Source: Bryobacterales bacterium (GTDB lineage Bacteria; Acidobacteriota; Terriglobia; Bryobacterales; UBA6623). From it: a stretch of DNA of 64,000 nucleotides. A model generated the notes under the pieces. It was not told the DNA's origin. It made no database searches and saw nothing but the letters and a program-made list of their open reading frames with translations. The position numbers and the translations under genes are program-made. Below are positions 10,271 to 64,000 of the stretch, one piece after another. The stretch covers positions 2,924 through 66,923 of the forward strand of contig JAJEHF010000215.1 of NCBI GenBank assembly GCA_022823865.1. Reading direction: 5' to 3'. Every line of letters begins with the position of its first letter. Positions within the stretch are counted from its first letter, which is position 1.

Positions 10271-11569
10271 TCAATCCCTTATGGTTTCGACAAGACGTTC
10301 CAGAGCTTCGATACAAAATGCCGAGGTCACTGCTTCCGATCCGTGCCCGATCCTCCCCACCGCGCCCCACTTCAAGAATTGGTCACCAAACGCGAGAAGC
10401 TCCGGCCAGCTACCGTCCTCGCGTTGCGAATCTATGAACGCCTCGACCTGGTGCTTCGCATCGACGCTCTCAAGGCTTCCGACGCTGTAAAGCGCCGATG
10501 CCGCCTGCGCGGCCTGAAGGACGTTGCCGAATCCTCCGTTGTTGTCGCACAGACCTCGGATGCGGTCCGCAAGTATCGGGCGGAGTTGATCGAGAGCAGG
10601 CTGCACACGAACCACGGCGCGAGCGATCGCATAGTAGATCGCGACCGTATCCGGATACCACTTGGACGAGCCGTCGAGGCGGTCTTCGGCGATCAAGTCT
10701 TCCAACCATCGTTGGGCATCTTTCGTTTCCGGATGGTCGCCTAAGTAGGCAATCACATTCGCATTGACAACTGGGTCAGATTCGAGGCGAAATCTTGACA
10801 CAACGTTGGGCTCATCGTCTTCTAGGACCCAAGTTGAGAAACAGCCGTTTTCGTCGCGATTCTTCAATATTCTTGGAACGTTTCGTCCGAGAAGAATCCA
10901 AGGATGATTCCCGCCGACCAATGAACACAGCGCAGTGCTGTCAAGATCCTGGGGAAGATGGCTGTAATAGCGCCAAAAGCCGGGATATTCAATGGTGTCG
11001 GCAAGGTACCTCTTGGTAGCGGTGCACATGGCCTTGGCCCGCGCTTCATTGCAACTCTCCAAGGCAAGCACGCACAGGGCTGAAACGAAAGGAGGCCTTT
11101 CGAAATGCCGTGGAATATCCGGATCAGCCGTGTTGAAACGGATGCACTGCCAAGCCCCGTTCTTGTCGATCGTGGATTCCAAGAATGCGAGACCGCGGCG
11201 GATGCTGTCTCTACCCGCTCTCGCAAGCGTCCCAGAGACGGCAGCGATGGTTCGGGCTCCCGTCGCTCCCCGGGCGGGCCGGGCCGGCGGCGCGGGGTCG
11301 TAGAGTGTCTTGCGAAGAAAATCGAGCGATGCTGCTCCGGCTTTCGCCGCGCTCCGTTCGGCGTCACTGAGTTTCCTACGTGGCGGTAGCACCACGTGCG
11401 TCGAGGAATAGGTCTCTTCGTGTACGTGAATCTCGTGGCCTTCGGGCAGCGTCACGCCGAATTCCTTCTCGAATGCTTCGCTAGGTTTCTCGAGAAGAAG
11501 TTCGCGAAAGTCATCGTCCTCGCCAGCTCTTGATACCAGAAAATCTTCTGCGCCGATAGGTTCCTTCAT
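10271..11569 (-). CDS. NHLP (nitrile-hydratase-like) leader domain fused to an alpha/alpha-toroid prenyltransferase/terpene-cyclase-like repeat domain
   Basis: The N-terminus DDDFRELLLEKPSEAFEKEFGVTLPEGHEIHVHEETYSSTHVVLPP...KLSDAERSAAKAGAA matches the NHLP leader pattern, including a Gly-Ala/Gly-Gly-type cleavage region. The remaining ~350 aa carry spaced repeats (KNGAWQ, YPGFWRYY, ENGCFSTW, DGSSKWY, NNGGFGN, EDGSWPE) typical of prenyltransferase-beta/squalene-cyclase repeats. Confidence 0.75.
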   Translation of the reverse strand: MKEPIGAEDFLVSRAGEDDDFRELLLEKPSEAFEKEFGVTLPEGHEIHVHEETYSSTHVVLPPRRKLSDAERSAAKAGAASLDFLRKTLYDPAPPARPARGATGARTIAAVSGTLARAGRDSIRRGLAFLESTIDKNGAWQCIRFNTADPDIPRHFERPPFVSALCVLALESCNEARAKAMCTATKRYLADTIEYPGFWRYYSHLPQDLDSTALCSLVGGNHPWILLGRNVPRILKNRDENGCFSTWVLEDDEPNVVSRFRLESDPVVNANVIAYLGDHPETKDAQRWLEDLIAEDRLDGSSKWYPDTVAIYYAIARAVVRVQPALDQLRPILADRIRGLCDNNGGFGNVLQAAQAASALYSVGSLESVDAKHQVEAFIDSQREDGSWPELLAFGDQFLKWGAVGRIGHGSEAVTSAFCIEALERLVETIRD

Positions 11570-48854: not shown

Positions 48855-49369
48855 TGGTTCGATTCTACCGAGCGCCCAGGTCGTCCCCGCGTTGGCTAGG
48901 GAGAATTGAAGATTCTGAGCGTGTGCACGTGGCACCAAAGTCAGATCTGAGCGTCGCTTGTCTGTTCGTATCGAGACCCTGGCCAACCGTCCGAAGACCA
49001 AAACGAGGCCTCTGGGTGACGCCTGCAAAGGGAGCTTCAAGGCGTGATCGGTGCCATCGAGTATTGCCGGAAGATGTGACCTTCGTCCGTCGCAGGTGGG
49101 GCAGACCGTCGCTGCGGGGGCCAAGGAGGCCACCGCTCGTCGGCTAGAAGAGGCACCGCGTTCCTGCGCGACCTCAATGACACCAGCCGACGTCGGAGAG
49201 CATTTGCGCACAATGGAAAATAGGCATCGATACTGGGACCGGTCGAGGCCCGAGTCCCAGACGCTGTTCTTTCCGCGGCCACCGCGCGGCTCGCTGTGGT
49301 GACGCGGTGGACCGGTGGGTTTCGCGATATAGGCGTCAAGGCCGTGATTCCCGGGACCGCTGGGCTGCT

Positions 49370-52300
49370 ATGAGAATCATTTCCAACACCGGCACTGATC
49401 GCGTGGTCGATATCGTCCGGCCCAAGCTTCTGGCCGGTAATCGACTCGACCTCGCTTCCCAAACGCTATCGCTCTTTGCCTTTGGCGAGCTTGCCGGAAA
49501 TCTGGCTCGCTTAGCGGGCGCACGACTCATCCTGCCAACCGACGATACTGAGATCGATCTTCTGGGATCGAATGCGGACCGGTCCGCCCGCAATCGTCTG
49601 CAGGGGCGCTGGCTGGCCAGCCGTTGTGCGGCTTGGATCGAGAAAGCGGTCGACGTGCGCAAAGCAAACGGATCGATACCTCAGGGGGCCATCGTGCTGC
49701 GTGACGGCGATGGCCGTGCTGGGCAGGCCCTGCTCGGCTCGTTTTCATTCAGCACCGACGGGCTCGGCCTTGCACCGGGAAACTCGCTCAATCTGATTCA
49801 GGCTTCTGAGACGCCCGGAGAATGTGATCGGCTGGGCCTATGGTTCGATGCGCAATGGTCTGAGATGAGAGAAGAGACCGCCGCAAAGCAGGATCTCGTG
49901 GCGGCTCTGCGCTGTCTTGCTGCGCACCGCGCCCCATCCAGCATCTACGCGCTGATCCTGCACCACTTGTTCCGAACGGAGGGCGGCGAACTCGATGAAG
50001 AGCGAGTCGTAAAGTCGGCGACCGGGATTCGCGACACGGAAGTCTGGAAGAGACTGTTCAAGTTCCAGCGTGACGGGGTAGTTGGGGCCATCGACAAACT
50101 AGAGCAGTTCGGAGGCTGCATCATCGCTGACAGCGTAGGACTTGGCAAGACCTTCGAGGCGCTCGCGATCATCAAATACCACGAGCTCCGCAACGACCGC
50201 GTGCTTGTGCTCTGCCCGAAGCGGCTACGCGACAACTGGACGCTCTATCGCGCTAATGATCGACGCAACTTCCTGGCGGGCGACCGCTTCAATTACGACA
50301 TTCTGAATCACACCGACCTGTCTCGCGATGGCGGCTTGTCGGGCGATATTGACCTTTCCCATGTCAATTGGGGCAACTACGATCTCGTCGTAATTGATGA
50401 GTCGCACAACTTCCGCAATAAGCGTTCGCCACGTCAGGGCGGAGAGACACGGTACGACCGCCTCATGCACCGGATCGTCCGCGATGGCGTGAAGACTAGG
50501 GTCCTCATGCTCACCGCCACGCCCGTGAACAACCGTTTGGCCGACCTACGCAACCAGATCGCTTTCGCTACCGAGGGCAACGACACAGCGCTCGCGGATC
50601 ATGGTGTGTCCAGCATTGACGGCACGACGCAGCGTGCGCAGAAGCAGTTCAACCGCTGGCTCGAACTGGACGAAACCGAGCGTACGCCGACCCGGCTCGT
50701 CGACATGCTGGGGTTTGATTACTTCGCGTTGCTGGACCGTCTCACAATCGCCCGATCTCGCCGACATCTCAAGAAGTACTATGGCTACAGCGAGAGCGGG
50801 CGCTTCCCGGAGCGCCTCAAGCCGATCAACGTAAAACCGGATGTTGATCTCCGAGGAGAGTTCCCCTCGATCCGTGAGATCAATGCGGAGATCCGCCGCC
50901 TGAACCTCGCTGCCTACGCACCGCTCCGCTATATCCTGCCGCACAAGCGAGAGGCATACGACGAGAAATACAGCACCCGACTGCGCCGTGGAGGCGGTAC
51001 CTTCCGGCAACTGGACCGCGAGGAGAGCCTCGTCCAACTTCTCCGCGTGAACGCGCTCAAGCGAATGGAGAGTTCAGTCGCTTCGTTTACCTTGACGGTG
51101 CAGCGCCAGCTTGCCGATGTCGAAGCACTCTTGGCGCGTATCGAGGACCAAGCCGAAGAACTCGAGGAACTCGACATCGCGGACATAGATGTCGAGGACC
51201 CTGAGTTTGAGAGCCTCCTTGTAGGTCGTAAGGTCAAGGTTCTGCTTCAGGACGTTGATCTAGTCCGATGGCGGCAAGACTTGGTCGAGGACCGCAACCG
51301 GCTGGAGACGCTTCGTGCTGTGGCCGCACAAGTGACCTCCGACCGCGATGCCAAGCTCATTGAACTACGCGCAACAATCGAGCGAAAATGCCGCGACCCG
51401 ATCAACATCGGCAATCGCAAAGTCATTGTGTTCACTGCATTTGCCGACACCGCCCGTTATCTCTACGACGCGCTGGCACCCTGGGCACATGACCACTTGG
51501 GGGTTCAAGCCGCACTGGTTACCGGCGCGGGCCAAAATCAGGCAACCTTGTCTGGTCTTCGGCGTGATCTCGCATCCATCCTGACCGCCTTCGCGCCACG
51601 GACCAAGGAACGTCCGGATGACCTGGCGGCCGAAGGCGAGATTGATCTCTTGATCGCAACCGACTGCATCTCCGAAGGGCAGAACCTCCAAGACTGCGAC
51701 TGGCTCATCAACTACGATATCCACTGGAACCCGGTACGCATTATTCAGCGATTCGGCCGTATCGACCGCATTGGGTCACCCAACGATCACATTCAGCTCG
51801 TCAACTTCTGGCCCAACATGGAGCTTGAAGAATATCTCCGCTTGGAACAGCGCGTGAGTGGCCGCATGGTGCTTCTCGATATTTCGGCGACCGGCGAGGA
51901 GAACCTGATCGAGCAGCAGGCAGGCGACCCAATGAACGATCTGGTCTACCGACGCAAGCAACTCCTGAAGCTCCAAGATGCGGTGATAGATCTGGAGGAC
52001 TTGTCGTCGGGGGTCTCCATCGCCGATTTAACGCTGACCGATTTCCGGATCGATCTGGCGCACTATCGCAGGACCGATCCCGACGCATTGGACTCGGCTC
52101 CTCACGGTATGCATGCGGTCACCGTCACAGCTGATGAGGATATCCCGCCAGGAGCAATATTCTGCCTACGCGCAGAAGGAAGCGCAGCAGAGCATCACTT
52201 CCAGTCGAATTACCCTCTAGCGCCGCACTATCTGGTTCATGTCGGCCAGGACGGATCCGTGCTCTTGCCGTTCACTAGGGCCAAGGCGGTTCTCGACCGC

Positions 52301-52567
52301 CTGAAGGGGCTATGTGTGGGCAAGGACATGCCCGATCCGAGTGCCTGCGCTCGATTCGATGCCGCCACCCAGCAAGGCAAGGATATGCGGGCCGCGCAGC
52401 GGTCGCTGGCCGCCGCGGTTACCTCTATTGTTGGAACGGGCGAGGAACGCGCGATCGCCAGCCTGTTCTCTCCGGGAGGGACGCACGCGATCGCCGGCGA
52501 GTTCGCTGGAATGGACGATTTCGAGGTGGTGGCGTTTCTCATCGTGCTACCGGAGGACTTAGCTTGA
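49370..52567 (+). CDS. SNF2-family helicase with an extra ~180-aa N-terminal domain (PLD-like?)
   Basis: Start at MRIISNTG (49370). SNF2 motifs ADSVGLGKT, VVIDESHNFRNK and QRFGRIDRIGS. First gene of the defence operon. Confidence 0.85.
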   Translation: MRIISNTGTDRVVDIVRPKLLAGNRLDLASQTLSLFAFGELAGNLARLAGARLILPTDDTEIDLLGSNADRSARNRLQGRWLASRCAAWIEKAVDVRKANGSIPQGAIVLRDGDGRAGQALLGSFSFSTDGLGLAPGNSLNLIQASETPGECDRLGLWFDAQWSEMREETAAKQDLVAALRCLAAHRAPSSIYALILHHLFRTEGGELDEERVVKSATGIRDTEVWKRLFKFQRDGVVGAIDKLEQFGGCIIADSVGLGKTFEALAIIKYHELRNDRVLVLCPKRLRDNWTLYRANDRRNFLAGDRFNYDILNHTDLSRDGGLSGDIDLSHVNWGNYDLVVIDESHNFRNKRSPRQGGETRYDRLMHRIVRDGVKTRVLMLTATPVNNRLADLRNQIAFATEGNDTALADHGVSSIDGTTQRAQKQFNRWLELDETERTPTRLVDMLGFDYFALLDRLTIARSRRHLKKYYGYSESGRFPERLKPINVKPDVDLRGEFPSIREINAEIRRLNLAAYAPLRYILPHKREAYDEKYSTRLRRGGGTFRQLDREESLVQLLRVNALKRMESSVASFTLTVQRQLADVEALLARIEDQAEELEELDIADIDVEDPEFESLLVGRKVKVLLQDVDLVRWRQDLVEDRNRLETLRAVAAQVTSDRDAKLIELRATIERKCRDPINIGNRKVIVFTAFADTARYLYDALAPWAHDHLGVQAALVTGAGQNQATLSGLRRDLASILTAFAPRTKERPDDLAAEGEIDLLIATDCISEGQNLQDCDWLINYDIHWNPVRIIQRFGRIDRIGSPNDHIQLVNFWPNMELEEYLRLEQRVSGRMVLLDISATGEENLIEQQAGDPMNDLVYRRKQLLKLQDAVIDLEDLSSGVSIADLTLTDFRIDLAHYRRTDPDALDSAPHGMHAVTVTADEDIPPGAIFCLRAEGSAAEHHFQSNYPLAPHYLVHVGQDGSVLLPFTRAKAVLDRLKGLCVGKDMPDPSACARFDAATQQGKDMRAAQRSLAAAVTSIVGTGEERAIASLFSPGGTHAIAGEFAGMDDFEVVAFLIVLPEDLA

Positions 52568-53322
52568 CATCGTTCGATCCCTTCGTGGCGCTCGCGATCC
52601 CCCCTGACGCGCTCGTCGACCGCCGCGTGCCCAAGACGCTGCTGATCGAAAATGGCGCGTTCGCTGCGGGAGACCGGCGGCACATCCAAGAGGGGATCGA
52701 GGAATTGAGGTGGCTTGCGGCACTCAAGCCGACGACGATCAGCATCACCGAATATCGTGATGCCGAGCGGGAGTATCTTGAGATTGCCGTTCTGAAGCTC
52801 AATCTACGTCCAGCCGCACGAGGTGATCGCCTCGTCGAACTGGTTCACCGCGCCGTCCCCTATCCGGTGTTGCTGATCGCTTGGCGGGACGGGACGCCCG
52901 AGATCTCGCTCGCCCACAAGCGTCGGTCTCTGGGTGAAGCGGACAAGACAGTGATCGATAGCGAAATCTTTGTGGCACGTGCCTGCGGCGACCAGGCAAA
53001 CGCGCTGGTCATGTCGTTCCGGGATGCTCTCTCCCTAGCACGACAGCCCCGGCACACACTCCACGCCTTGTATCAGGGCTGGATCGATACTGTCCAAGCG
53101 TTCCGGGCGGCAACGATCACCGGCGCATTTCGCCTTCCCGCCACGACCCCAGCGGCGGCCGACCGGGAAGCCGCTCTCCGGGAATACCGCGATCTCAATG
53201 CTAGGATCGCCAATATACGTTCCGCGGCCAGCAAGGAGAAACAGATGTCCCGCCGGGCCGACTTGAACATCGAACTTGCGCGCCTGCGCGCACAGCGCGA
53301 TTTTGCTCGTGCCAGACTGTGA
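52564..53322 (+). CDS. DUF4391-like protein
   Basis: The TTG start overlaps the SNF2 stop (TTGA at 52564-52567). The layout (...VPYPVLLIAW...ISLAHKR... and C-terminal KEKQMSRRADLNIELARLR) matches my memory of DUF4391 proteins that sit between SNF2 and methylase genes. Confidence 0.6.
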   Translation: MTSFDPFVALAIPPDALVDRRVPKTLLIENGAFAAGDRRHIQEGIEELRWLAALKPTTISITEYRDAEREYLEIAVLKLNLRPAARGDRLVELVHRAVPYPVLLIAWRDGTPEISLAHKRRSLGEADKTVIDSEIFVARACGDQANALVMSFRDALSLARQPRHTLHALYQGWIDTVQAFRAATITGAFRLPATTPAAADREAALREYRDLNARIANIRSAASKEKQMSRRADLNIELARLRAQRDFARARL

Positions 53323-53336
53323 AGGAGATTCGCGTC

Positions 53337-55325
53337 ATGGAGAAGATTATTGCCGGTGAACCGCAGGCCCGCTCGGCGGATATCATCGCCGACAATCTCG
53401 AAAGGCTGAAGGCCTTGTTTCCTGAGGCATTTACTGAAGGCAAGGTAGATTTTGCGGTGCTACGGCAGCCTCTCGGCGACAACGTGGACGAGAGTGATGA
53501 GAAATACGGCCTCAACTGGTACGGGAAACGCCGTGCACGGCAGCTAGCGCTCACACCCTCGCTTGGGACATTGCGCCCCTGTCCGGAGGAAAGCGTCGAT
53601 TGGGATATGACACAGAATCTGATGATCGAGGGCGATAATTTGGAGGTTCTAAAGCTCCTTCAGAAGAGTTATTCAGGTAAGGTCAAGCTTATCTATATCG
53701 ACCCTCCCTACAACACCGGTAAGGATTTCGTCTATTCGGACAATTATCGTGACAATCTACAAAACTACTTAGAGAGTACCGGGCAAACCGACAGCAGTAA
53801 CAGCGGTACGTTTTCATCAAACTCTGAGACCTCTGGAAGATTTCATACCTATTGGCTCAATATGATTCTACCGAGGCTGTACCTTGCTAGGTCACTGCTA
53901 CGGAAAGACGGAACAATCATGATCAGCATTGACGATACTGAAGTTGCTCATGTCCGACTAATTATGGACGACATTTTTGGCCCTGAGAACTTTATCGCCG
54001 AAATAGTCTGGGAGGGGGCCAACAAGAATGACGCACGGCAGATAGGCATTTGCCATGAGTACGTCATAGTATATGCCAAGAACCGTGAGAGCCTTCAGCG
54101 CGACTGGGGGTTGGACAAGGAGGGAGTGCAACCCGTACTCCAAGAAGTAAAACGCCTCAGAGGTTTACACGGCACCGATTACTGTGCGGCTTCTGAAGAT
54201 CTGGCAGGCTGGTTCCGAGCCAACAAAGCCAAACCAGCATTCGCAAATCGCCGGTTCAGAAATATTGATGCAAGGGGTGCGTACAAGGAGGATGATCCGA
54301 CCGCACCGGGGGGACGAAAATTCGAATTGCGGAATCCAAGGACTGGACAAGTTATTCCTCTCAGACAAAATCGAGGGTGGAGCTTTGACCAAGAGAGATT
54401 CGATCGGTTAGTGGGAGATGGAAGAATCACATTCGTGACGGAGACGAGCGTAATGGTTCGTCGTTATTTGCACGAGACGGACAAGCTAACTCCTCCAAGT
54501 GTCTTCTATCAGCCAGCACGTTCTGCGTCGGAACGACTCAATCGCATGATGGGTGCGCAGATTTTTGACTACCCGAAGGATGAAAGCATTTTAGGAAAAT
54601 TCATACAAATGGCGACTGACGATGACCCAAACGCTATTGTGATGGATTTTTTTGCTGGATCCGGTACGACAGGGCATGCTGCATTGGAACGAAATTCGTT
54701 AGATAATGGCAATCGTCGCTACGTCCTTGTTCAGCTTCCTGAACCACTTGACTCAAAGAAGAGCCACCAGAGAGCCGCTACCGATTACTGTGACGAACTC
54801 CGTAGACCACGCAGTATCGCCGAACTCACGAAGGAGCGTCTGCGCCGCGCGGCGCAGAAAATCAAGGATGAGAATCCCGAGTACACCGGCGATCTCGGCT
54901 TCCGCGTCTTCAAACTCGATACATCCAACATCCGTGCGTGGAATTCGAAGCCAGACAATCTGGAAGGCGCACTGCGTGCGGCTCTCAACCATGTCGAATC
55001 GGGCCGCACCGAAGAGGACATTCTCTATGAGCTGCTTCTAAAGCTCGGTCTCGATCTCTGCGTTCCCATCGAGACCCGGACGATTGCCGCTAGGGCCGTG
55101 CATGCGGTTGGTGCCGGAAGCCTGATTGCCTGCCTCGACGAGGCGATCTCCAGCGACGAGGTTGAGCCGCTAGGGGCTGGCATCGCTGACTGGCATGACA
55201 TCCTCGATCCCGCTGGCGAATCCACTGTTGTCTTTCGTGACAGCGCGTTCGGCGATGACGTCGCCAAAACGAACCTCACCGCAATCCTTGAGCAACGCGG
55301 TCTCGGAAATGTCCGAAGCTTGTGA
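53337..55325 (+). CDS. Site-specific DNA methyltransferase, beta-class N6-adenine (type III Mod-like)
   Basis: Motif IV IYIDPPYNTG precedes motif I DFFAGSGTTGHAA. AAGGAG RBS 9 nt upstream of the ATG. This is the AT-richest part of the operon by eye. Confidence 0.9.
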   Translation: MEKIIAGEPQARSADIIADNLERLKALFPEAFTEGKVDFAVLRQPLGDNVDESDEKYGLNWYGKRRARQLALTPSLGTLRPCPEESVDWDMTQNLMIEGDNLEVLKLLQKSYSGKVKLIYIDPPYNTGKDFVYSDNYRDNLQNYLESTGQTDSSNSGTFSSNSETSGRFHTYWLNMILPRLYLARSLLRKDGTIMISIDDTEVAHVRLIMDDIFGPENFIAEIVWEGANKNDARQIGICHEYVIVYAKNRESLQRDWGLDKEGVQPVLQEVKRLRGLHGTDYCAASEDLAGWFRANKAKPAFANRRFRNIDARGAYKEDDPTAPGGRKFELRNPRTGQVIPLRQNRGWSFDQERFDRLVGDGRITFVTETSVMVRRYLHETDKLTPPSVFYQPARSASERLNRMMGAQIFDYPKDESILGKFIQMATDDDPNAIVMDFFAGSGTTGHAALERNSLDNGNRRYVLVQLPEPLDSKKSHQRAATDYCDELRRPRSIAELTKERLRRAAQKIKDENPEYTGDLGFRVFKLDTSNIRAWNSKPDNLEGALRAALNHVESGRTEEDILYELLLKLGLDLCVPIETRTIAARAVHAVGAGSLIACLDEAISSDEVEPLGAGIADWHDILDPAGESTVVFRDSAFGDDVAKTNLTAILEQRGLGNVRSL

Positions 55326-55351
55326 AAGCAAGTAGAGCCCAATTGAGCATC

Positions 55352-56125
55352 ATGGCCCGCCGACACCACTACAGGAATCCTCCCATCGAGGAGGCACTCT
55401 GCGAGTTTCGCTTCGAGCCTGGGCGAGACTGGAATCTCACGATTCCAGGAAGGCTGCAAACGGTTCTTGGGGAGGCTTACTCCGGCAGGCCAAGAGAACA
55501 GAGGGCTATTGAAGTAGATCTAGGTCTGGGAAGTGCCCTGCCTTCCGGTTTGCAATTCCGGCAGGGGCTCGCCAAGGTTCAGTTGGTGACCGCAGATGGA
55601 AAGCGGTCAGTAGGCGTGGGGAAAGACTCGCTCAGTGTCCACATGTTGCGACCGTACCAGCGGCAAAGCGAGGAAAGCCAAGCTGGCTGGGACGAATTCA
55701 AGTTACGGATATCGGAAGCACTGGATGCCTACTGGAAGGTGGCTCGCCCCAAAGGTGTCAAGCGGGTCGGCGTCCGATACATCAATAAGCTCGTGGTCCC
55801 TAGTGGCAGCATCGAGCTTGAAGATTATCTTGCTTGTGGCCTTCCCCAAACTACAGCGCTGCCAGAGACCGCGAGCAGCTTCGTCAGTCGAGTGGAGTAC
55901 GCTTTCCCTGGTCCGGTGCGTCTGATCCTGACACTCGGCACTGTTCCGGCCTCACGGGAAGGCGTCCAAGAGTTGTTGGTGGATCTCGATGTCATCCGGG
56001 AGGATGCCGAGCCACTGGATCAACGTCAGGCAAGCAAGGTGGTTGAAGAGTTGCGGGCTAGGGAGCGCCAAGTGTTCGAATCTGTCATTACAGACAAGGC
56101 GAGGAGGCTGTTCGATGCGGATTGA
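55352..56125 (+). CDS. TIGR04255-like uncharacterised protein
   Basis: The N-terminus MARRHHYRNPPIEEALCEFRF matches the Y.n.PI.EA..E.RF start that I recall for the TIGR04255 family. ~257 aa. An alternative GTG at 55322 would overlap the methylase stop. Confidence 0.55.
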   Translation: MARRHHYRNPPIEEALCEFRFEPGRDWNLTIPGRLQTVLGEAYSGRPREQRAIEVDLGLGSALPSGLQFRQGLAKVQLVTADGKRSVGVGKDSLSVHMLRPYQRQSEESQAGWDEFKLRISEALDAYWKVARPKGVKRVGVRYINKLVVPSGSIELEDYLACGLPQTTALPETASSFVSRVEYAFPGPVRLILTLGTVPASREGVQELLVDLDVIREDAEPLDQRQASKVVEELRARERQVFESVITDKARRLFDAD

Positions 56126-56840
56126 ATCAAAGTCCATTGCTTCTGCCAGAACTTGGACGGCCGACCAGGCAACCTCGGCAACTCCGGATCGTTCACACCG
56201 TTCATCGAAGGATTCTCGGATCGTGGCACTAGGAAACGACTCGCTCGCGACGCTTCCCGATGCAGCGGTGTTGAGAATGGCTACGCTCGAAGCCAGACTC
56301 GCATCGTCCCTTCGATCGGATGCAATGAGCCATGCGGCGTGGTCGCCGCCGACCAGTGATTCCGGTGCTCTGCCGGAGATCCTGAGCTACCTGGCGAGCA
56401 CTGACGAACAACGTTGTGTGGAGCCTGTCGCTCATGCACAACTTGAGCGGCAATTGCAAAATGCCTTCGAACGCCAACCGTTTGAAGACGGAATCGATCA
56501 TGCCGCGGACGACATAATTCAAGAGGCATTGCAAACACCCTACCAGCACGTCGCGCTGGAGTGGCTACGGTCGTTCGCCCTAGACACAGAGAATCCTGTG
56601 TTTGCTGCCTCCACGCTGAGGTGCCTTGGGCGCGTAGAGAACTTGGGCACCCCTATATGGAGAACCGAGCTCGTGCGGGAGGGCCTGATGATGGAGGACC
56701 TTGAGATGCGGGATGCTGCGATTCAGACGGCGGAGAATTGGGGAGACAGGGAGATGGTCGAGGTTCTCCAAGCGCATACCGAATCGAACAGTTTGCTCCG
56801 CAGATATGTTGAAGATGTGATCAGCGATCTGAGCGAGTGA
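56115..56840 (+). CDS. Hypothetical protein with C-terminal HEAT/ARM-like repeats
   Basis: ATG at 56115 with a GAGGAGG RBS 7 nt upstream; overlaps the previous gene by 11 nt. The C-terminus ...MEDLEMRDAAIQTAENWGDREMVEVLQAH... is HEAT-like. Confidence 0.5.
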   Translation: MRIESKSIASARTWTADQATSATPDRSHRSSKDSRIVALGNDSLATLPDAAVLRMATLEARLASSLRSDAMSHAAWSPPTSDSGALPEILSYLASTDEQRCVEPVAHAQLERQLQNAFERQPFEDGIDHAADDIIQEALQTPYQHVALEWLRSFALDTENPVFAASTLRCLGRVENLGTPIWRTELVREGLMMEDLEMRDAAIQTAENWGDREMVEVLQAHTESNSLLRRYVEDVISDLSE

Positions 56841-56843
56841 TCG

Positions 56844-57356
56844 ATGTCGATGTTCGTGGCACGCAAGATTTCGAGCTCAAAATGGGAGAAGCATCCTGAG
56901 TTCGCCGAGGGCGAAATCCAGGCAGATGCGGTGACCGCCGACCTACGGACCAATAAAAATGTGCTTTCGTTCTGGCGTTGTCAAAGCGGCGAGATTACGG
57001 ATGTCGAAAACGTGGCTCTGGCAATCGCAGCGGCAGCGGACCGCATCGAGAAAGTCGATGTGGTGTGGCTGCCCACCGACCAGCTTCTCGAAGATCGCCA
57101 GACATTTATGGACAGCCCCGGCCGGACCCCGGTCGCCGATCTCGTTGATAGTCACGTGGACCTCAGCAGACTTGATCTCGTGCGGCTTGGGCGGCTCGCG
57201 AACCGGGTAGTGGAAGCTATCGGAGCGGGCCGTACACAACGAGTTCCCAGAGCGCGGGTAAAGAGCCTCCTAGTGAATGCCGTACTAACGAATCGAATCG
57301 AGCCCGAGCGGCTGTCGGAGAAGATTCGTAGGGCTCTGAATGCCGAGGGAGGCTAA
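56844..57356 (+). CDS. Hypothetical 170-aa protein
   Basis: Begins 3 nt after the previous stop. The N-terminus ...ARKISSSKWE....EIQADAVTADLRTNKNVLSFW... recalls an unnamed family I have seen in defence islands, but I cannot assign it to a family. Confidence 0.45.
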   Translation: MSMFVARKISSSKWEKHPEFAEGEIQADAVTADLRTNKNVLSFWRCQSGEITDVENVALAIAAAADRIEKVDVVWLPTDQLLEDRQTFMDSPGRTPVADLVDSHVDLSRLDLVRLGRLANRVVEAIGAGRTQRVPRARVKSLLVNAVLTNRIEPERLSEKIRRALNAEGG

Positions 57357-57359
57357 CTG

Positions 57360-57614
57360 GTGCATAGGCGTCAGACTATTCTCTGCTCAAGCAACCAAGA
57401 TCAATCGTTCGTTGCCGAGGTCCCCGAGACACGTAGGGGCATGAAGTTGGGCGCTGATCAGGGAACTGTCCACCGGCGCGTCATTGACGCGATGCAGTTC
57501 TGGATCGAACAGGCACAGGAACGGGGACGGCCCCTCCTGCACCCTAACGGCCAACTCCTGATGCTCGCCGACCGCGTGTGGCAACAACCACAGCAAGCAC
57601 CTCTCCAGCCATGA
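57360..57614 (+). CDS. HicB-like (antitoxin-fold) small protein, diverged
   Basis: GTG start with a GAGGGAGG RBS 7 nt upstream. ...SFVAEVPETRRGMKLGADQGTVHRRVIDAMQFWIEQAQERGRPLLHP parallels the HicB pattern ...fvAevPeLpGc.a.G.T.eEA....eA...wie.a.e.G.piP.P. Its stop overlaps the Res start (ATGATGA). Confidence 0.45.
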   Translation: MHRRQTILCSSNQDQSFVAEVPETRRGMKLGADQGTVHRRVIDAMQFWIEQAQERGRPLLHPNGQLLMLADRVWQQPQQAPLQP

Positions 57615-60337
57615 TGAAGCTCCGTTTCGAGCCCGACCTCGATTTTCAGTTGCAAGCGGTGGATGCCGTATGCGGTCTCTTCCGCGGTCAGGAGATATGC
57701 CGGACCGAGTTCACGGTCACGCGGGATCCACTGGACCCACAAGAGCGACTGGCGTTTTCTCAGAACGATCTCGGAGTCGGCAATCGACTGACCCTGCTCG
57801 ACGACGAGATTCACGAGAACCTGAAAGACATCCAGCTCCGCAACGGTCTGCCGCCGTCCGAGTCGTTGCACTCGGGGGACTTCACTGTGGAGATGGAGAC
57901 CGGGACCGGCAAGACCTACGTATATCTGCGCACGGTCTTCGAGTTAAACAAGCGCTACGGCTTTACCAAGTTCGTCATCGTCGTGCCGTCGGTCGCGATC
58001 AAGGAAGGCGTCTACAAGTCGCTCCAGATGACAGACGACCACTTCCGTGCGCTCTATTCGGGCACGCCATTCGATTACTTCCTCTACGACTCGACAAAGC
58101 TCGGCCAAGTCCGCAATTTCGCCACTAGCCCGCAAATCCAGATCATGGTGGTAACAGTCGGAGCCATCAACAAGAGGGATGTCAACAATCTCTACAAAGA
58201 CAGCGAGAAAACAGGCGGCGAAAGGCCGATCGATCTCATCAAAGCCACCAGACCTATTCTGATCGTGGACGAGCCCCAAAGCGTGGACGGTGGCCTCGCA
58301 GGGCGAGGCAAGCAAGCCCTCGACGCGATGAATCCGCTCTGTACGCTACGGTACTCGGCGACACATGTGGATAAACACCACATGGTCTACCGGCTCGATG
58401 CCGTTGACGCGTATGAACGCAAGCTGGTCAAGCAGATCGAGGTGGCGTCCGCCAACATCGAAGACGCCCACAACAGGCCCTATGTCCGGCTGATCTCAAC
58501 AAACAACAAACGCGGCGTCGTCAGCGCCAAGGTCGAAGTCGATGTCGAAGTCGCCGGACATGTACGGCGCAGCGAGAGGGCGGTCCACGATGGCGACGAT
58601 CTCGAACAGGAGACGGGGCGGGTAGTCTATCGCGATTGCCGCGTCGGCGAGATAAGGGTTGGGAAAGGAAACGCACTCATTGAACTGCGGGTGCCGGGCG
58701 GCGAGCACTTTCTCCGGGAGGGCGAAGCCTACGGCGATGTGGATGCATCAGCCGTCCAGCGGCAGATGATACGACGGACCATTCGCGAGCATCTCGATAA
58801 AGAGAAACGCTTGCGTCCACAGGGGATCAAGGTCCTGAGCCTCTTCTTCATCGATTCTGTGGAGCGCTACCGTCGCTATGACGATGCGGGCCAACCGTGC
58901 AAAGGTGACTATGCCCGAATGTTCGAGCAGGAGTACCAGCGCCTTGCTCGCCATCCCGACTATGTTTCGCTGTTCGAAGAAGTGGATCTCACAGCGGATG
59001 TCGTAGATGTCCACGATGGCTATTTCTCGATCGACAGGAAGGGGGGCTGGACGGATACCGCCGAAAACAACCAAGTCAATCGCGACAATGCTGAGCGTGC
59101 CTACAACCTCATCATGAAGGAAAAAGAGAAGCTACTGAGCCTCAACGAGCCTCTCAAGTTCATCTTCTCCCATTCAGCATTGCGCGAGGGTTGGGACAAC
59201 CCCAATGTCTTCCAAATCTGCGCTCTGCGGGATATCCACACCGAGCGTGAGCGGCGGCAGACCATCGGACGCGGCCTGCGTCTTTGCGTCAATCAAGGCG
59301 GTGAGCGCTTGCGTGGCTTCGAAGTGAACACGCTGACGGTAGTTGCAAGGGAGAGCTACGAGGAGTTCGCAGAGAACCTCCAACGGGAAATCGAGGAAGA
59401 TACTGGAATCCGCTTCGGGGTCATCGAGCCGCACCAGTTCGCACAGATTCCAGTTATCGACGATGATGGAGCAAAGTCCGTTCTTGGGTTCGACAAGTCG
59501 CAGGTCCTGTTCGACCATCTACAGGCTGAAGGCTACCTCGACGCAAAGGGGCGAATACAGGACTCCCTACGCAATGCGATCAAGGCCGATAGTTTCTCGA
59601 TTCCTCAAGGATTTGTCGAGCAGCGGACTGACATCGGTTCCGTTTTGCGCAAATTCGCTGGTCGATTTGAAATCAAGAATGCAGACGAGCGCCAAGCCGT
59701 CCGCCCGCGCCAAGCTGTGCTGGACGCCGCAGAGTTCAAGGCATTGTGGGACCGCATCAAGCACAAGACTACCTATCGCGTGGCCTTCGACAACAAGGCC
59801 CTTCTAGAAAAATGCGCCGCTGCGTTACGCAAAGCACCACCAATCCCAAGAACGCGGCTGCAATGGCGTAAGGCCGACGTGTCCATCGGTCAGGCGGGAG
59901 TACAGGCTACCGAAATCGCCGGGGCGTCGACGGTCGTTTTAGATGAGGTCGACATCGAGCTGCCAGACTTGCTCACGGAGCTTCAGGACCGGACGCAGCT
60001 CACTCGGCGCAGCATCCACAATATTCTTGTTGAAAGTGGGCGCCTCGACGATTTCAAGCGGAATCCGCAGCAGTTCATCGAAATTTCCGAGCAGGCCGTC
60101 AATAGTTGCAAGCGACAGGCACTCGTGGACGGCATCAAGTACCAGCGAATCGGGGATGAGTCCTACTACGCCCAAGAACTCTTCGAGCAAGAAGAGCTCA
60201 CCGGCTACCTCAAGAACATGCTCGATGCCCAGAAATCGGTCTATGAGAAAGTCATTGTAAGCGGACGTTATATCTCGGTCCGCCGGGACGTAATACCCGG
60301 CCCAGGACTTAAAGTAATACCTCAGCCCAGTTTCTGA
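57611..60337 (+). pseudogene. Type III restriction enzyme Res-subunit helicase, apparently truncated before the C-terminal endonuclease domain
   Basis: Helicase motifs METGTGKTY, ILIVDEPQS and HSALREGWDNPNVF. After ...KSVYEKVI the expected DS.vE...PD-(D/E)xK segment is absent. The last ~26 codons (VSGRYISVRRDVIPGPGLKVIPQPSF) are unrelated, and the DNA there is AT-richer. Confidence 0.65.
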
Positions 60338-60404
60338 CGACCACAACATGTAGTGGTGTAGGCCGCACCTAAAAACGGTCCTGCGCTGGCGCCAACGAGG
60401 TCGA

Positions 60405-60836
60405 CTAGAAGCGGAGGACGCCTCGCGCAACTCGGTCAGATTCGGCTGTCCGGAGGTCAGGCAGGCGTCGTCGCAGAGCCTTCAGCGAGAGCACTGGGTA
60501 GCCGCGCCTGGCCGCTTCGGATTGGTAGCGGCGAAGGGCGGCAGCGACGCTCGAGCGCGGAATTCGCCGGTATTCCGCCGCGAGCAGTTGCAAGGCCTCG
60601 GCGGGCAGCTTGACCCTGGGCCGGCCGCCGCATGGGGCGCCCCGATTACGGTCTAGCGCTCGCGAGTTGCCGAGATTGTTTTCGCGCCATCGCCTCCAGA
60701 GGTACAGGCTGGCCCGGGAGACGTTGCGCTTGCTCGCGACGATGACGGCCGCCGCGCTCCAGCTCATGCCGCTAGCGGCAAGGCGGTCGCAATCGCTCAA
60801 GCACTTAGCCCTGAAGAATCTATCGGGTTGCGGCAT
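60405..60836 (-). CDS. HTH DNA-binding protein; possibly the N-terminal fragment of a Mu/Tn-type transposase or a phage regulator
   Basis: HTH-like ...SGMSWSAAAVIVASKRNVSRASLYLWRRW..., then ...GRPRVKLPAEALQLLAAEY...GYPVLSLKALRRRL..., which resembles Mu-type DNA-binding subdomains. No catalytic domain follows. The start (60836 vs 60896) is uncertain. Confidence 0.4.
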   Translation of the reverse strand: MPQPDRFFRAKCLSDCDRLAASGMSWSAAAVIVASKRNVSRASLYLWRRWRENNLGNSRALDRNRGAPCGGRPRVKLPAEALQLLAAEYRRIPRSSVAAALRRYQSEAARRGYPVLSLKALRRRLPDLRTAESDRVARGVLRF

Positions 60837-60892: not shown

Positions 60893-61870
60893 TCACGCCG
60901 TGGGAACCTCCGCCGTGACGCTGGTCGAATAGCCGCCGCCGCTGATCCGGTGCACCGCCCGAACGCAGATCCAGCGACGGTCGAGGCCGTCCCTGAAACC
61001 CTTCAGGCGCAGCTCCGCCTCGGCCGCGACCTCGGGCTTTCCGGGCTCCAGCTCGATCGCCAGCCGGCCGGTGCCGCGCAGCAGCTCTCGCAGTTTCGCG
61101 CGAGCGGCGTCGCGCGCCTCTCCGGAGCTCGGATACAGCCGCCGCAGCGCGTAGACCGGCTCCCCCGATCCCGCCTCCTCGGTGACGCTGCCGGCCGCCT
61201 GAGCGTCGCGCCAGCGCGCCGTCACGGCGCTATAGTCGCCCCTGTCGGCCAGCGAGGCTCGCCAGCGCGAGGCGTCGGCCGGCCCGATCTCGACGGCCGG
61301 CATGCGCCTGCCGGTGGCGCTGGAGGCCTCCCCGCGCGGCACCAGCAGCAGCTTCCCCTCGGCCGGCTTCGCGATCGCGTCGTAGTCGCGGGCGACCCTG
61401 GTCAGCAGGTGCAGGTCGGACTCCTCGGTCTGGTCCAGGTGAGGGATCCGCACCGCTCGCAGGGACTCTCCGACGCGGCCTTCGAGGCCGTGCTCGGAGG
61501 CGATCCCGGCGACCAGCTCGCCGAGCGAAACATCGCTCCAGGAGCGCGACTTGCGAGACTTCAGCGAGCTGCGCATGTCGGCTCCCCGGGCGCGGATCAC
61601 CAGCGTGTCCGGCGGCCCCTCAAGGGCCGTCTCGTCGACCGTGAACTCTCCGGCGGGAGTCATCTTACCGTCCAGCCAGCCCAGCGAGATCGACAGCCGG
61701 GAGCCCTTGCGCGGCAGCGCCACCGCCCCGTCGCGATCGTCGATCCGGATCTCGGCCGAGTCGGACTGCTCGCCCGCCTCGTCGGTCACCGACAGCTGCA
61801 GCAGGCGGTCGCGGATCGCCTCGGTGGCGTCCTGGGACTCGTCGACCTCGATGCGAAAATCGGGCGTCAC
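60893..61870 (-). CDS. Phage late control protein D (P2 gpD-like tail/baseplate hub protein)
   Basis: 325 aa with the gpD-like pattern ...PDFRIEVD...DITDRLLSLSVTDEAG..SD.AEI.IDDRDG... and ...DQTEESDLHLLTRVARDYDA.AKPAEGKLL.VPRG. Confidence 0.85.
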   Translation of the reverse strand: MTPDFRIEVDESQDATEAIRDRLLQLSVTDEAGEQSDSAEIRIDDRDGAVALPRKGSRLSISLGWLDGKMTPAGEFTVDETALEGPPDTLVIRARGADMRSSLKSRKSRSWSDVSLGELVAGIASEHGLEGRVGESLRAVRIPHLDQTEESDLHLLTRVARDYDAIAKPAEGKLLLVPRGEASSATGRRMPAVEIGPADASRWRASLADRGDYSAVTARWRDAQAAGSVTEEAGSGEPVYALRRLYPSSGEARDAARAKLRELLRGTGRLAIELEPGKPEVAAEAELRLKGFRDGLDRRWICVRAVHRISGGGYSTSVTAEVPTA

Positions 61871-61874
61871 GCGA

Positions 61875-62084
61875 TCACTCCCAGAGCCTCACGGCCTCGC
61901 TCCGCCTGCTCTCGGCGGGCAGCTCCGGCAGCTCGATGAGCACTCCGGCCGGCAGCAGCGGGCCCCTGTCCGCCAGCCCGGGATTGGCCTCCAGCACGAC
62001 CTCGGCCGCGCCGGGCCGCGGGCCGTAATGCCGGCGGCTGATGGCGTCGACCATGTCGCCCTCGCTGGTCAGGTACGCGGCCAT
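61875..62084 (-). CDS. Phage tail protein X (P2 gpX-like)
   Basis: 69 aa. ...GDMVDAISRRHYG......VLEANPGLA......LPAGVLIELPE is the gpX/LysM-like pattern. Confidence 0.8.
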   Translation of the reverse strand: MAAYLTSEGDMVDAISRRHYGPRPGAAEVVLEANPGLADRGPLLPAGVLIELPELPAESRRSEAVRLWE

Positions 62085-62087
62085 TGC

Positions 62088-62492
62088 CTAGCCCTCCCCG
62101 TCCTCTCCGTAGAACGCGAGCGAGATCTGGAATTCGACCTTTCGGGGCGCCCCGCCGGCCAGGTGCGCGCTGCCGGTATCGCGGATCCGCGTGATCACCC
62201 ACAGGCCGAGCACCTTCCCGTCGCCGCCCACCAGGCGCAGCGGCTCGCCCTTGGCGGCCTCCGCGCGCATGGCGTCCAGCTGGCCCAGCCCCCCGCGCCA
62301 GGCCGGGTAGATCGTCCCGCGCAAATCGATCGTGTCGTCCCCCGGCCCCAGCCACTGCCGCGCCGGCGTCCGGCCGACGCGGTCCTGCCGGTGCCAGCGG
62401 TATTCCTGCGCGCGAGAAAGCTCGCCGTAGGCCGCCGTCGAGACCGAGAAGGCGTATGCTCCGAGCTTCAGCAGCTGCGCGTCATCCGGCAT
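62088..62492 (-). CDS. Phage tail protein U (P2 gpU-like)
   Basis: 134 aa. ...LGAYAFSVSTAAYGELSRAQEYRWHRQDRVGR.PA.QWLGPGDDTIDL.G.IYP... is the typical gpU pattern. Confidence 0.85.
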   Translation of the reverse strand: MPDDAQLLKLGAYAFSVSTAAYGELSRAQEYRWHRQDRVGRTPARQWLGPGDDTIDLRGTIYPAWRGGLGQLDAMRAEAAKGEPLRLVGGDGKVLGLWVITRIRDTGSAHLAGGAPRKVEFQISLAFYGEDGEG

Positions 62493-64000
62493 CGTAGAGT
62501 CCCTCCAGGCGGCCCTGCCGCTGGGCGTCCTCGAGCTTCTCGATCACGCGGTCCGCCAGCTCCTCGGCGCTCTCCCCGGGCAGCTGCTGGATCGAGATAC
62601 GGACATTCCACGTGACGGAAGGAGCGGGCGCAGGCTCGGGACGGCGAGCCTCGGAAGGCTCGGCGCGGATCTCCGCTGCCGGCAGCGGAGAGTCCGGTGT
62701 CGTGTCCGTATCGCCCGCGGGGATTCCCGCGGCCGCCAGCGGGACCGCCAGCGCCGTCGCGGCAGCGGCCGTCGCCAGGCGGGGCGCGCGCCTGCCGCCC
62801 AGCTGTCGCGCGGCCGGCTTGCCGGACTCCTCGATCCCGGCCTGCTCGATCTTCCCGGCCAGAGCCGGATCGTGGAACACTTGGCTCGCGAAGGAGCCGA
62901 TCTTGTGCCCGGCGAGACCGCCCGCCACGCTGCCGAGGAGCCCGCCGATGACTGTCCCGACGACCGGCACGACCGACCCCAGCGCCGCTCCCAGCGCCGC
63001 GCCGGCCATGGCGCCGCCGATGCCTCCGGCCTCTTTCGTCACTCCGGCCGCCTTCTCCCCGGCGCTGAGCTTCTTGTCGAGCAGCGTGCCGCCTATCGCG
63101 GCCGCCCCGATCAGGGCGCCCGCGATGCCGGCCTTGCCCTTGAGCATGCCGAGCGCCTGCCGGCCGCGGCCGCGGCCGAATTCGAAGACCTTGCCGGCAA
63201 GGCCCCGGAAGCCGCCCTTGCGCAGGCCTCTGAGCTTGTCTCCCAAGCCCCGGAAGCCCCGTCCGGCCTTGCCCGGGGGAGCGCCCCCGGCCGGGCCGCC
63301 GATGGCATCCGCGAGCACCGCTGCCTTGCTCCTGCGGGCCTGTTTCCCGAGGAACGCGATCGCCAGGCCCAGGTTGGTGACGGCGGTAACCACCGGCGCG
63401 GCGATCAAGGCGACGGCGCCGGCGGCTCCCAGGGCGCCGACGAGGATTCGCGTCCAGACGGGCGCCCCCTCCGCGAAGCCGGAGATCTTCTCCGCCAGCC
63501 ACTCGACCATCGGGGCGGCCGCCTCCAGCGCGGGGATCAGAGCCTCCCCGATCTTCAGGCCGACCTCGTTCCAGCGCGCCTCCAGCTTGTCCATCCTGGC
63601 GTCGAAGTTGTCCTCGTCGGCCGCGTCGACCGCGTCGCGCACCGCTTGCGCGCCTCCCTCGCCGGCAGCGCGAATGTCGGCCTCGGCGGCTCGCAGCGCG
63701 TCCGCCTGCCCCCACAGCGAATCGAAGAAGCGCACGGCCTCCTCGGACCCGAAGGCCTGCCTGAGCGCCTCGCCGCGCTCGCTCGCGCCCATGCCGCGGA
63801 ACTCGCGCTGCACCTGCTCGAGCAGGTCCGCCAGCGGCAGGACGTTCCCGCGCGCGTCCAGCGTCCGGACGCCCAGGCCCTGCTCGCGAAAGTACTCGTC
63901 GGCCTTGGCCGCGTTGGCCGCCAGGGCCTTCAGGGCCGTGCCGGCCTCGCCGGCCTCCATCTTCGACTGCAGCATGCCCAGCGCCGCGAACTGCGACTCC
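62482..64000 (-). CDS. Phage tail tape-measure protein (gpT-like), N-terminus outside the window
   Basis: The ORF is open to the window edge. Ala/Gly-rich with a TMP core (...EAGTALKALAANAAKA...) and hydrophobic Gly-rich segments. Overlaps the gpU start by 11 nt. Confidence 0.8.
   Translation of the reverse strand, partial: ESQFAALGMLQSKMEAGEAGTALKALAANAAKADEYFREQGLGVRTLDARGNVLPLADLLEQVQREFRGMGASERGEALRQAFGSEEAVRFFDSLWGQADALRAAEADIRAAGEGGAQAVRDAVDAADEDNFDARMDKLEARWNEVGLKIGEALIPALEAAAPMVEWLAEKISGFAEGAPVWTRILVGALGAAGAVALIAAPVVTAVTNLGLAIAFLGKQARRSKAAVLADAIGGPAGGAPPGKAGRGFRGLGDKLRGLRKGGFRGLAGKVFEFGRGRGRQALGMLKGKAGIAGALIGAAAIGGTLLDKKLSAGEKAAGVTKEAGGIGGAMAGAALGAALGSVVPVVGTVIGGLLGSVAGGLAGHKIGSFASQVFHDPALAGKIEQAGIEESGKPAARQLGGRRAPRLATAAAATALAVPLAAAGIPAGDTDTTPDSPLPAAEIRAEPSEARRPEPAPAPSVTWNVRISIQQLPGESAEELADRVIEKLEDAQRQGRLEGLYDAG

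Follow-up and report, generated by a model that had tools for sequence, protein, structure and literature searches.

A probable Mu-like prophage insertion in the type III restriction gene res of an uncultured Bryobacterales bacterium

The DNA analysed here, referred to as the window, is a stretch of 64,000 nucleotides from a Bryobacterales genome (NCBI GenBank assembly GCA_022823865.1, contig JAJEHF010000215.1, positions 2,924 to 66,923), in which a type III restriction gene, res, lacks its nuclease end where it meets a module of phage tail genes. It was found that a Mu-like transposable prophage has very probably inserted itself by transposition in the 3′ part of res, where it separates codon 882 from codon 883. 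The insertion would have been made by DDE strand transfer with a 5-bp stagger during lysogenisation, at a site chosen essentially at random; Mu-type integration is nearly random. The window holds the right (late, tail) end of the phage, where the Res motor now reads straight into terminal phage DNA, and the severed 112 codons lie at the left (repressor, transposase) end, on a second contig of the same assembly (C56; the window's own contig is C45, and the assembly is G000 in the coordinates below). A preliminary description of this DNA had proposed an insertion or deletion event at a prophage or tailocin boundary. Of this, the insertion at a phage boundary is upheld, but nothing was deleted and there is neither a scar nor a tailocin. 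The anomaly of a nuclease-less Res beside tail genes is in this way resolved as a textbook transposable-phage insertion.

Truncation of the restriction subunit

The Res open reading frame (ORF), at window positions 57578–60337 on the + strand, translates to a type III Res homologue, with its native start placed by orthologues at the ATG at 57611. Alignment with six orthologues gave 84–95% identity up to ...SVYEKVI, followed by 26 unrelated residues; past the same point, full-length orthologues continue into the conserved nuclease motifs ...NPDWAVL... and ...VVETKG.... The first foreign base after res is window position 60256 and the break falls after native residue 882, the last Ile codon of the native part being completed by the first phage base. 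The preliminary description of a type III pattern up to a break, followed by 26 unrelated codons and a stop, is therefore borne out by translation and orthologue alignment, and its approximate position for the break (~60256) was correct to the base. The two parts of the ORF are:

57611..60255, + strand: native 5′ part of res, residues 1–882 of ~994, a helicase/ATPase motor without the nuclease domain (orthologue alignment)
60256..60337, + strand: fusion tail of the truncated Res, 26 codons and a stop read from the right-end DNA of the phage (translation; the orthologue alignment diverges here)

Alignment to full-length orthologues, as had been suggested, puts the loss at 112 C-terminal residues. 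These represent essentially the whole nuclease domain, PF19778 (RE_endonuc) being located at residues 874–978 of the orthologue P0003. Orthologues were sought with Res residues 500–919 as the query; the 8000 candidates sharing the most words with it were scored, all 8000 matched and the best 120 were listed. The closest orthologues in sequence, among these best 120, are mostly 993–994 residues long and carry PF19778, and nearly all listed matches cover 94% of the query, that is, all but its last 26 residues. Consistent with this, Res covers only positions 1–875 of 989 in the PADLOC type III restriction endonuclease profile. The N-terminal superfamily 2 (SF2) helicase/ATPase is present (Pfam ResIII PF04851, 40.2 bits) and matches EcoP15I Res (4ZCF_C) with an E value of 1e-58 over query residues 70–609. 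The C-terminal PD-(D/E)xK endonuclease domain (PF19778) is absent from the window polypeptide and was found as a separate fragment on C56.

One orthologue, P0008 (899 residues, 89% identical to the query region, on a 1.6-Mb contig), is independently truncated, apparently by a frameshift. The frameshift lies a few codons upstream of the position of the window break (...NMLDAK, then out of frame), giving a nuclease-less allele by a different route.

Reciprocal junctions and target-site duplication

When the genome was searched with P0003, res was recovered in two pieces, residues 1–883 on C45 and residues 880–994 on C56. The C45 piece is 95–97% identical to P0003. The 3′ piece (G000:C56:11195-11539, − strand) is 95% identical to P0003, contains no stops and matches positions 7–103 of 108 in PF19778. 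The fragment that the preliminary description had suggested looking for is thus intact at the other end of the prophage, and no uninterrupted copy of res is present in the assembly. Because both halves are about equally similar to the orthologues (97% and 95%, no stops), the insertion appears to be recent.

The direct repeat that had likewise been proposed for the far end of the element was found as a 5-bp duplication, GTCAT, at both junctions:

60251..60255, no strand: target-site duplication GTCAT, window copy (junction sequences; empty sites in the relatives L007 and L008)
G000:C56:11532-11536: target-site duplication GTCAT, second copy (junction sequences)

With a slash marking the boundary, the window junction reads ...AAAGTCAT / TGTAAGCGG... 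(also written as ...GAGAAAGTCAT, then TGTAAGCGGACG...) and the C56 junction reads ...CCCCCACA / GTCATCTACGAT... (in the direction of res also ...TTTCGTCCCCCCACA, then GTCATCTACGATTTCGG...). The empty site is provided by two relatives that retain a whole res, L007 (NCBI assembly) and L008 (metagenome of the Joint Genome Institute, JGI), and reads ...AAAGTCATCTACGAT... (also written as ...GAGAAAGTCATCTACGATT...). GTCAT is present there in a single copy, and each of the two junctions has one copy as well. No orthologue ends at the window break.

The inserted DNA begins with 5′-TG and finishes with CA-3′, the window end reading TGTAAG... and the C56 end ...CCCACA. A 5-bp duplication with TG...CA termini is the parsimonious reading of these junction sequences. 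TG...CA dinucleotides are characteristic of Mu-like prophages (PMC2628397), and the target sites duplicated by Mu are 5 bp long and follow a degenerate consensus, CYSRG (PMC7350765), whose Y-S-R core is matched by the central T-C-A of GTCAT. Downstream of res, L007 has a small gene and then a PSCyt1/PSCyt2/PSD1 gene. On the C56 side, an ORF located downstream of the 3′ res fragment, at the outer edge of locus L002, is presumably the start of a PSCyt1-type protein, as recognised by eye from its translation. Such conservation of the flanking genes speaks for a simple insertion.

A fragmented assembly of 231 contigs in which the middle of the phage is missing could raise the question of an assembly or binning artefact, with C45 and C56 chimeric or derived from different strains and the real res intact. 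However, the reciprocal junctions on two independent contigs fit one empty site base for base with a 5-bp duplication, chimeras would not yield a target duplication and the assembly holds no uninterrupted res copy. We consider such an artefact very unlikely.

Gene content of the prophage

The element occupies C45 from window position 60256 to the contig end (16.9 kb), extending beyond the window, and positions 11537–17209 of C56 (5.7 kb), so that ~22.6 kb of the phage is in hand. The genes nearest the junction are:

60405..60836, − strand: 143-residue helix-turn-helix (HTH) protein, last gene before the right end of the phage (start ATG 60836 by gene callers; phrog_310)
60893..61870, − strand: P2 gpD-type tail protein (Pfam Phage_GPD; phrog_52, E 3e-116)
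61867..62355, − strand: gpU-position ORF of the P2-order tail module (by position only, no family match)
62482..64000, − strand: tail tape-measure gene, running past the window end (phrog_28, E 4e-55)

Reading from the junction on C45, the minus-strand genes are the HTH gene, gpD, the gpU-position ORF, the tape measure, a gpE-position ORF (assigned by position only), tube and sheath, followed by a tail fibre, J-, W- and V-like baseplate genes, a Mu-type major head gene and a Mu-like I protease/scaffold gene. The tail genes are in P2 order (V-W-J-I-H-FI-FII-E-T-U-D), and gpD is 40–46% identical to myovirus gpD proteins. The major head protein (phrog_371, E 4e-80) is 48–51% identical to those of D3112/B3-type transposable Pseudomonas phages and of Alteromonadaceae phage B23, and the protease/scaffold matches PF10123 (Mu-like_Pro) with an E value of 6e-38. 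At the left end, on C56, a 125-residue repressor-like HTH gene with a weak match to phrog_4268 is transcribed towards the terminus. It is followed by unrecognised early ORFs and then by the first 158 residues of a transposase, cut by the contig edge, which match positions 10–145 of 696 in phrog_310 (E 1e-12) and score 23.1 bits for HTH_Tnp_Mu_1, just under the 23.3 cutoff.

Judged from gene order and family matches, the layout is that of Mu, with the repressor facing the left end, the early operon directed inwards and the late operon running to the right end. The predicted products place Mu-type transposition and head modules together with a P2-order contractile tail module. No DNA-level similarity and no close protein similarity to cultured phages was found, all matches being below 60% identity. 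A 57-bp repeat (91% identity, spaced 120 bp) is present within the sheath gene region at L005:6798-6974 (G000:C45:69897-70073).

Within the window the tail genes alone are visible and the HTH gene looks like a transposase fragment, which would fit a domesticated R-type tailocin or a deletion scar in which a rearrangement deleted the 3′ end of res and truncated a transposase-like neighbour. An R-type tailocin is a tail module without head, packaging, lysogeny or transposition genes. Here, outside the window, C45 and C56 carry genes for a head, a protease, a repressor-like protein and a transposase, the res 3′ end was not deleted, and the HTH gene has the same length in relatives and is under purifying selection. 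The tail module belongs to a prophage with head and transposition modules and is not a tailocin; a tailocin or scar is accordingly an extremely improbable account of the locus.

Several points weigh against the insertion of a single Mu-like prophage. The catalytic core of the transposase, the portal and Mu F were not found in the 231-contig, 94%-complete assembly. Neither the end of C45 nor that of C56 overlaps with another contig, the phage middle is missing, and the continuity of one prophage across the two contigs is deduced from the reciprocal junctions. A left terminus shorter by one base would formally allow a 6-bp duplication (AGTCAT).

As for the missing functions, searches of the genome with the families Mu-transpos_C, Portal_Mu, DDE_2 and Phage_Mu_F found none, and control genomes were also silent for three of them, so those three negatives are weak. 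A tblastn search of the genome with two Mu transposases returned the HTH gene only. MuB, expected downstream of the transposase and beyond the contig end, did not turn up in the assembly, no search aimed at MuB having been made. No second copy of the phage is present in the assembly. The middle of the phage is therefore unassembled or unbinned.

Organization of the phage ends

The right end of the prophage begins at the first foreign base after res and includes the following non-coding features:

60256..60404, − strand: non-coding right end (attR-type) of the prophage (homology with related phage ends stops at base 60256)
60261..60298, no strand: GGGACG(T/A)(T/A)AT-type motif, repeated directly with a spacing of 23 bp (both copies being candidates for transposase-binding sites, R1 and R2)
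60340..60353, no strand: motif ACCACAACATGTAG, common to both phage ends (best-conserved block of the right end in the alignment)

The terminal dinucleotide of the right end is TG on the + strand, equivalent to ...CA-3′ on the phage strand. Metagenome contigs carrying homologues of the HTH gene at 81–83% identity align with the right end down to the terminal ...TACA (...CTACA). Three of these contigs (L010, L011 and L013) stop exactly at the terminal base and a fourth (L009) continues into DNA unrelated to res. The same terminus beside different DNA is expected of a transposable phage with many insertion sites, or of virion DNA with variable host flanks.

These termini also bear on whether the locus could instead represent a P2-like temperate phage, integrated site-specifically into res by an integrase acting on a short att core. 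Such integration would be in keeping with a tail module in P2 order and with gpD in last position, as at the end of a P2 prophage. It is not in keeping with a repeat of only 5 (at most 6) bp and ends of TG...CA, with the presence of Mu-type head genes and a Mu-type transposase N-terminus, or with the occurrence of the same terminus beside different DNA in relatives of the phage. The 22.6 kb available showed no integrase, no search aimed at integrases having been made. P2-like integration is thus highly improbable.

For the Mu-like prophage, the first ~22 bases of the two ends form, by eye, an imperfect inverted repeat of TGT, a variable tetramer, GGACG, two variable bases, ATAT and TCGG. All copies of the GGGACG(T/A)(T/A)AT-type motif point inwards; counted from the terminus, they lie at +9 and +32 on the right and at +9 and +156 on the left. 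The motif ACCACAA(C/G)ATGTAG is found at both ends, at +85 on the right and at +236 on the left. Equivalent paired repeats were read by eye from the alignment in L009 and L013. Going by the arrangement of these motifs, the direct-repeat pair probably binds the transposase. The spacing on the right and left recalls the adjacent R1 and R2 and the spaced L1 and L2 sites of Mu.

The left end additionally contains three 22-bp tandem repeats in perfect register (GGGCCGCGCTTGATTG.TTCCC) between the repressor-like gene and the terminus, at L006:2702-2767 (G000:C56:11701-11766). One inverted copy is located 22 bp from the left terminus, at L006:2560-2574 (G000:C56:11559-11573), and the motif is absent from the right end. 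These repeats may be operators or further transposase-binding sites.

The junction stretch had been described as AT-richer and as containing a small hairpin. The GC content at 60100–60400 is ~0.53–0.54, compared with 0.70–0.78 in the tail genes and 0.53–0.60 in res, so that the stretch is AT-rich relative to the phage genes but not relative to res. The hairpin sequence GCGGAC-N11-GTCCGC is present at 60261–60283 as described, within the direct-repeat pair. It was rejected as a functional feature: its folding z-score is −1.45, 17 of 200 shuffled sequences fold at least as well, and it is not conserved in related phage ends. Those ends instead appear, by eye, to share the direct-repeat pair, and the hairpin was treated as incidental.

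A stand-alone helix-turn-helix gene at the right end

The last phage gene, encoding the 143-residue HTH protein, ends 148 bp inside the phage terminus. Its product matches positions 110–243 of 696 in the transposase family phrog_310 (E 1e-8) and scores 18.3 bits for Pfam HTH_Tnp_Mu_2, below the 20.5 cutoff. It had previously been read as only the DNA-binding front of a larger Mu/Tn-type protein. The resemblance to the DNA-binding part of a Mu-type transposase holds, but homologues of the same length indicate that the insertion did not truncate the gene.

The protein family is very rare: when 1.84 billion representative sequences were searched exhaustively, the only matches were one cluster of 143-residue proteins, two full Mu transposases and one unrelated 388-residue protein. 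The transposases, P0126 (512 residues) and P0128 (660 residues), both carry DDE_2 and Mu-transpos_C and are distant matches over their I-beta/I-gamma segments, with a phmmer E value of 2.6e-6 to a full Mu transposase. The homologues on short metagenome contigs are all 143 residues long and 81–83% identical. No relatives were found in cultured phages or viral contigs, and among 400 genomes of the same order only weak matches were found, some within long open frames (815 residues in G084) that may be transposase-like. Across three lineages the gene is identical in length, with a ratio of nonsynonymous to synonymous substitution rates (dN/dS) of 0.37–0.45 at a dS of ~0.3. The gene is an intact phage gene under moderate purifying selection and not insertion debris.

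In the AlphaFold model, the predicted local distance difference test score (pLDDT) is ~90 for residues 1–53, which form the first HTH domain, and 65.6 overall. The top Foldseek match is MuA in the transpososome structure 4FCY (probability 0.97, E = 0.013, a weak match), with isolated I-gamma and I-beta structures lower. The protein looks like a free-standing relative of I-beta/I-gamma, the domains with which the Mu transposase binds the phage ends; the sequence and structure matches are consistent with this but weak. Most likely it binds the phage ends or regulates transcription. A more specific role, as an undescribed stand-alone end-binding module that is expressed late, occupies the terminal repeats and modulates transposition, is tentative and on balance doubtful. 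If true, the protein could shut transposition off late, protect the ends or add to immunity. In location the gene corresponds to ogr, which follows gpD in P2, but it does not encode a zinc-finger protein. It is the one feature of this locus beyond the ordinary.

Two other origins for the gene were rejected. It shows no significant similarity to the N-terminus of the phage's own transposase, such as a recent duplicate would have. An origin as a casualty of the insertion is contradicted by the same-length homologues, the purifying selection and its location 148 bp inside the terminus.

Consequences for restriction and modification

The partner methyltransferase gene, mod, lies in the same operon as res and upstream of the insertion:

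53319..55325, + strand: type III Mod methyltransferase, full length, 668 residues (PADLOC MTase_III PDLC03634 and Pfam N6_N4_Mtase)

Mod covers positions 5–620 of 621 in PDLC03634 (E 1e-208), and its orthologues are 662–667 residues long. The preliminary description of an intact methylase beside a Res deprived of its nuclease domain accordingly stands, the Mod profile being full and the Res profile ending at 875 of 989. Because Mod is full-length and upstream of the insertion, methylation should continue, and because Res keeps its motor without the nuclease, cleavage by this system should be lost. This domain content suggests that the host likely methylates its DNA but no longer restricts via this type III system.

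It had also been suggested that the loss of restriction would benefit an incoming element. This was not sustained, as there is no sign of res having been a preferred target or of selection for its loss. Within the same genus, full-length res was found in three genomes (G056, G026 and G024) and fragments only in at least four (G090, G144, G019 and G152), with stops within the fragments of G144 only. None of the same-genus genomes examined has a break at residue 882/883. The system seems to be patchy and repeatedly lost within the genus, its loss being commonly tolerated.

The operon upstream of res (window 49307–57356) encodes an HKD+SNF2 helicase (PADLOC C3a139, E 6e-111), a DUF4391 protein, Mod and several unassigned small genes, in the same order as in L007. 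Elsewhere in the genome, ~330 bp at G000:C90:28106-28435 (locus L003, ~1270–1600) are 68% identical to window positions 57378–57708. This stretch consists of a HicB-like small ORF and the first 33 codons of a res gene (82% amino acid identity) and then stops; from its sequence it seems to be what is left of another, related restriction operon.

The appropriate annotation for the locus is a split res pseudogene and a prophage end. With both of its ends located exactly, a new Mu-like phage is also documented from an uncultured lineage.

Comparison with known systems

The truncated Res is like the EcoP15I-type Res (PDB 4ZCF chain C) in that the SF2 motor domains align and the gene is paired with a type III Mod. 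Its own orthologues have the C-terminal PD-(D/E)xK domain, whereas the window copy is without it. Unlike EcoP15I, the window operon adds the SNF2/HKD helicase, DUF4391 and extra small genes upstream.

The phage is like Mu in that it presumably entered a host gene by transposition of the DDE type, with little site preference, and in its 5-bp duplication and 5′-TG...CA-3′ termini (PMC7350765; PMC2628397). It also shares with Mu a repressor gene facing the left end, a late operon running towards the right end and several putative transposase-binding repeats inverted between the ends. Unlike Mu, its tail module is in P2 gene order, its right end has no invertible G segment or mom and instead finishes with the small I-beta/I-gamma-like HTH gene, and the transposase core and MuB were not recovered. 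The BcepMu-type and D3112/B3-type phages are, like this one, modular mosaics in which a Mu-type transposition and head module is combined with a tail module of another kind. The D3112/B3 phages differ in being siphoviruses; the phage described here has a sheath and baseplate. Should its end-binding reading be true, the HTH protein would resemble the truncated-transposase inhibitors of other transposons. As a whole, the Mu-like insertion event is of an ordinary and well-understood kind, and the phage is a new Mu-like phage.

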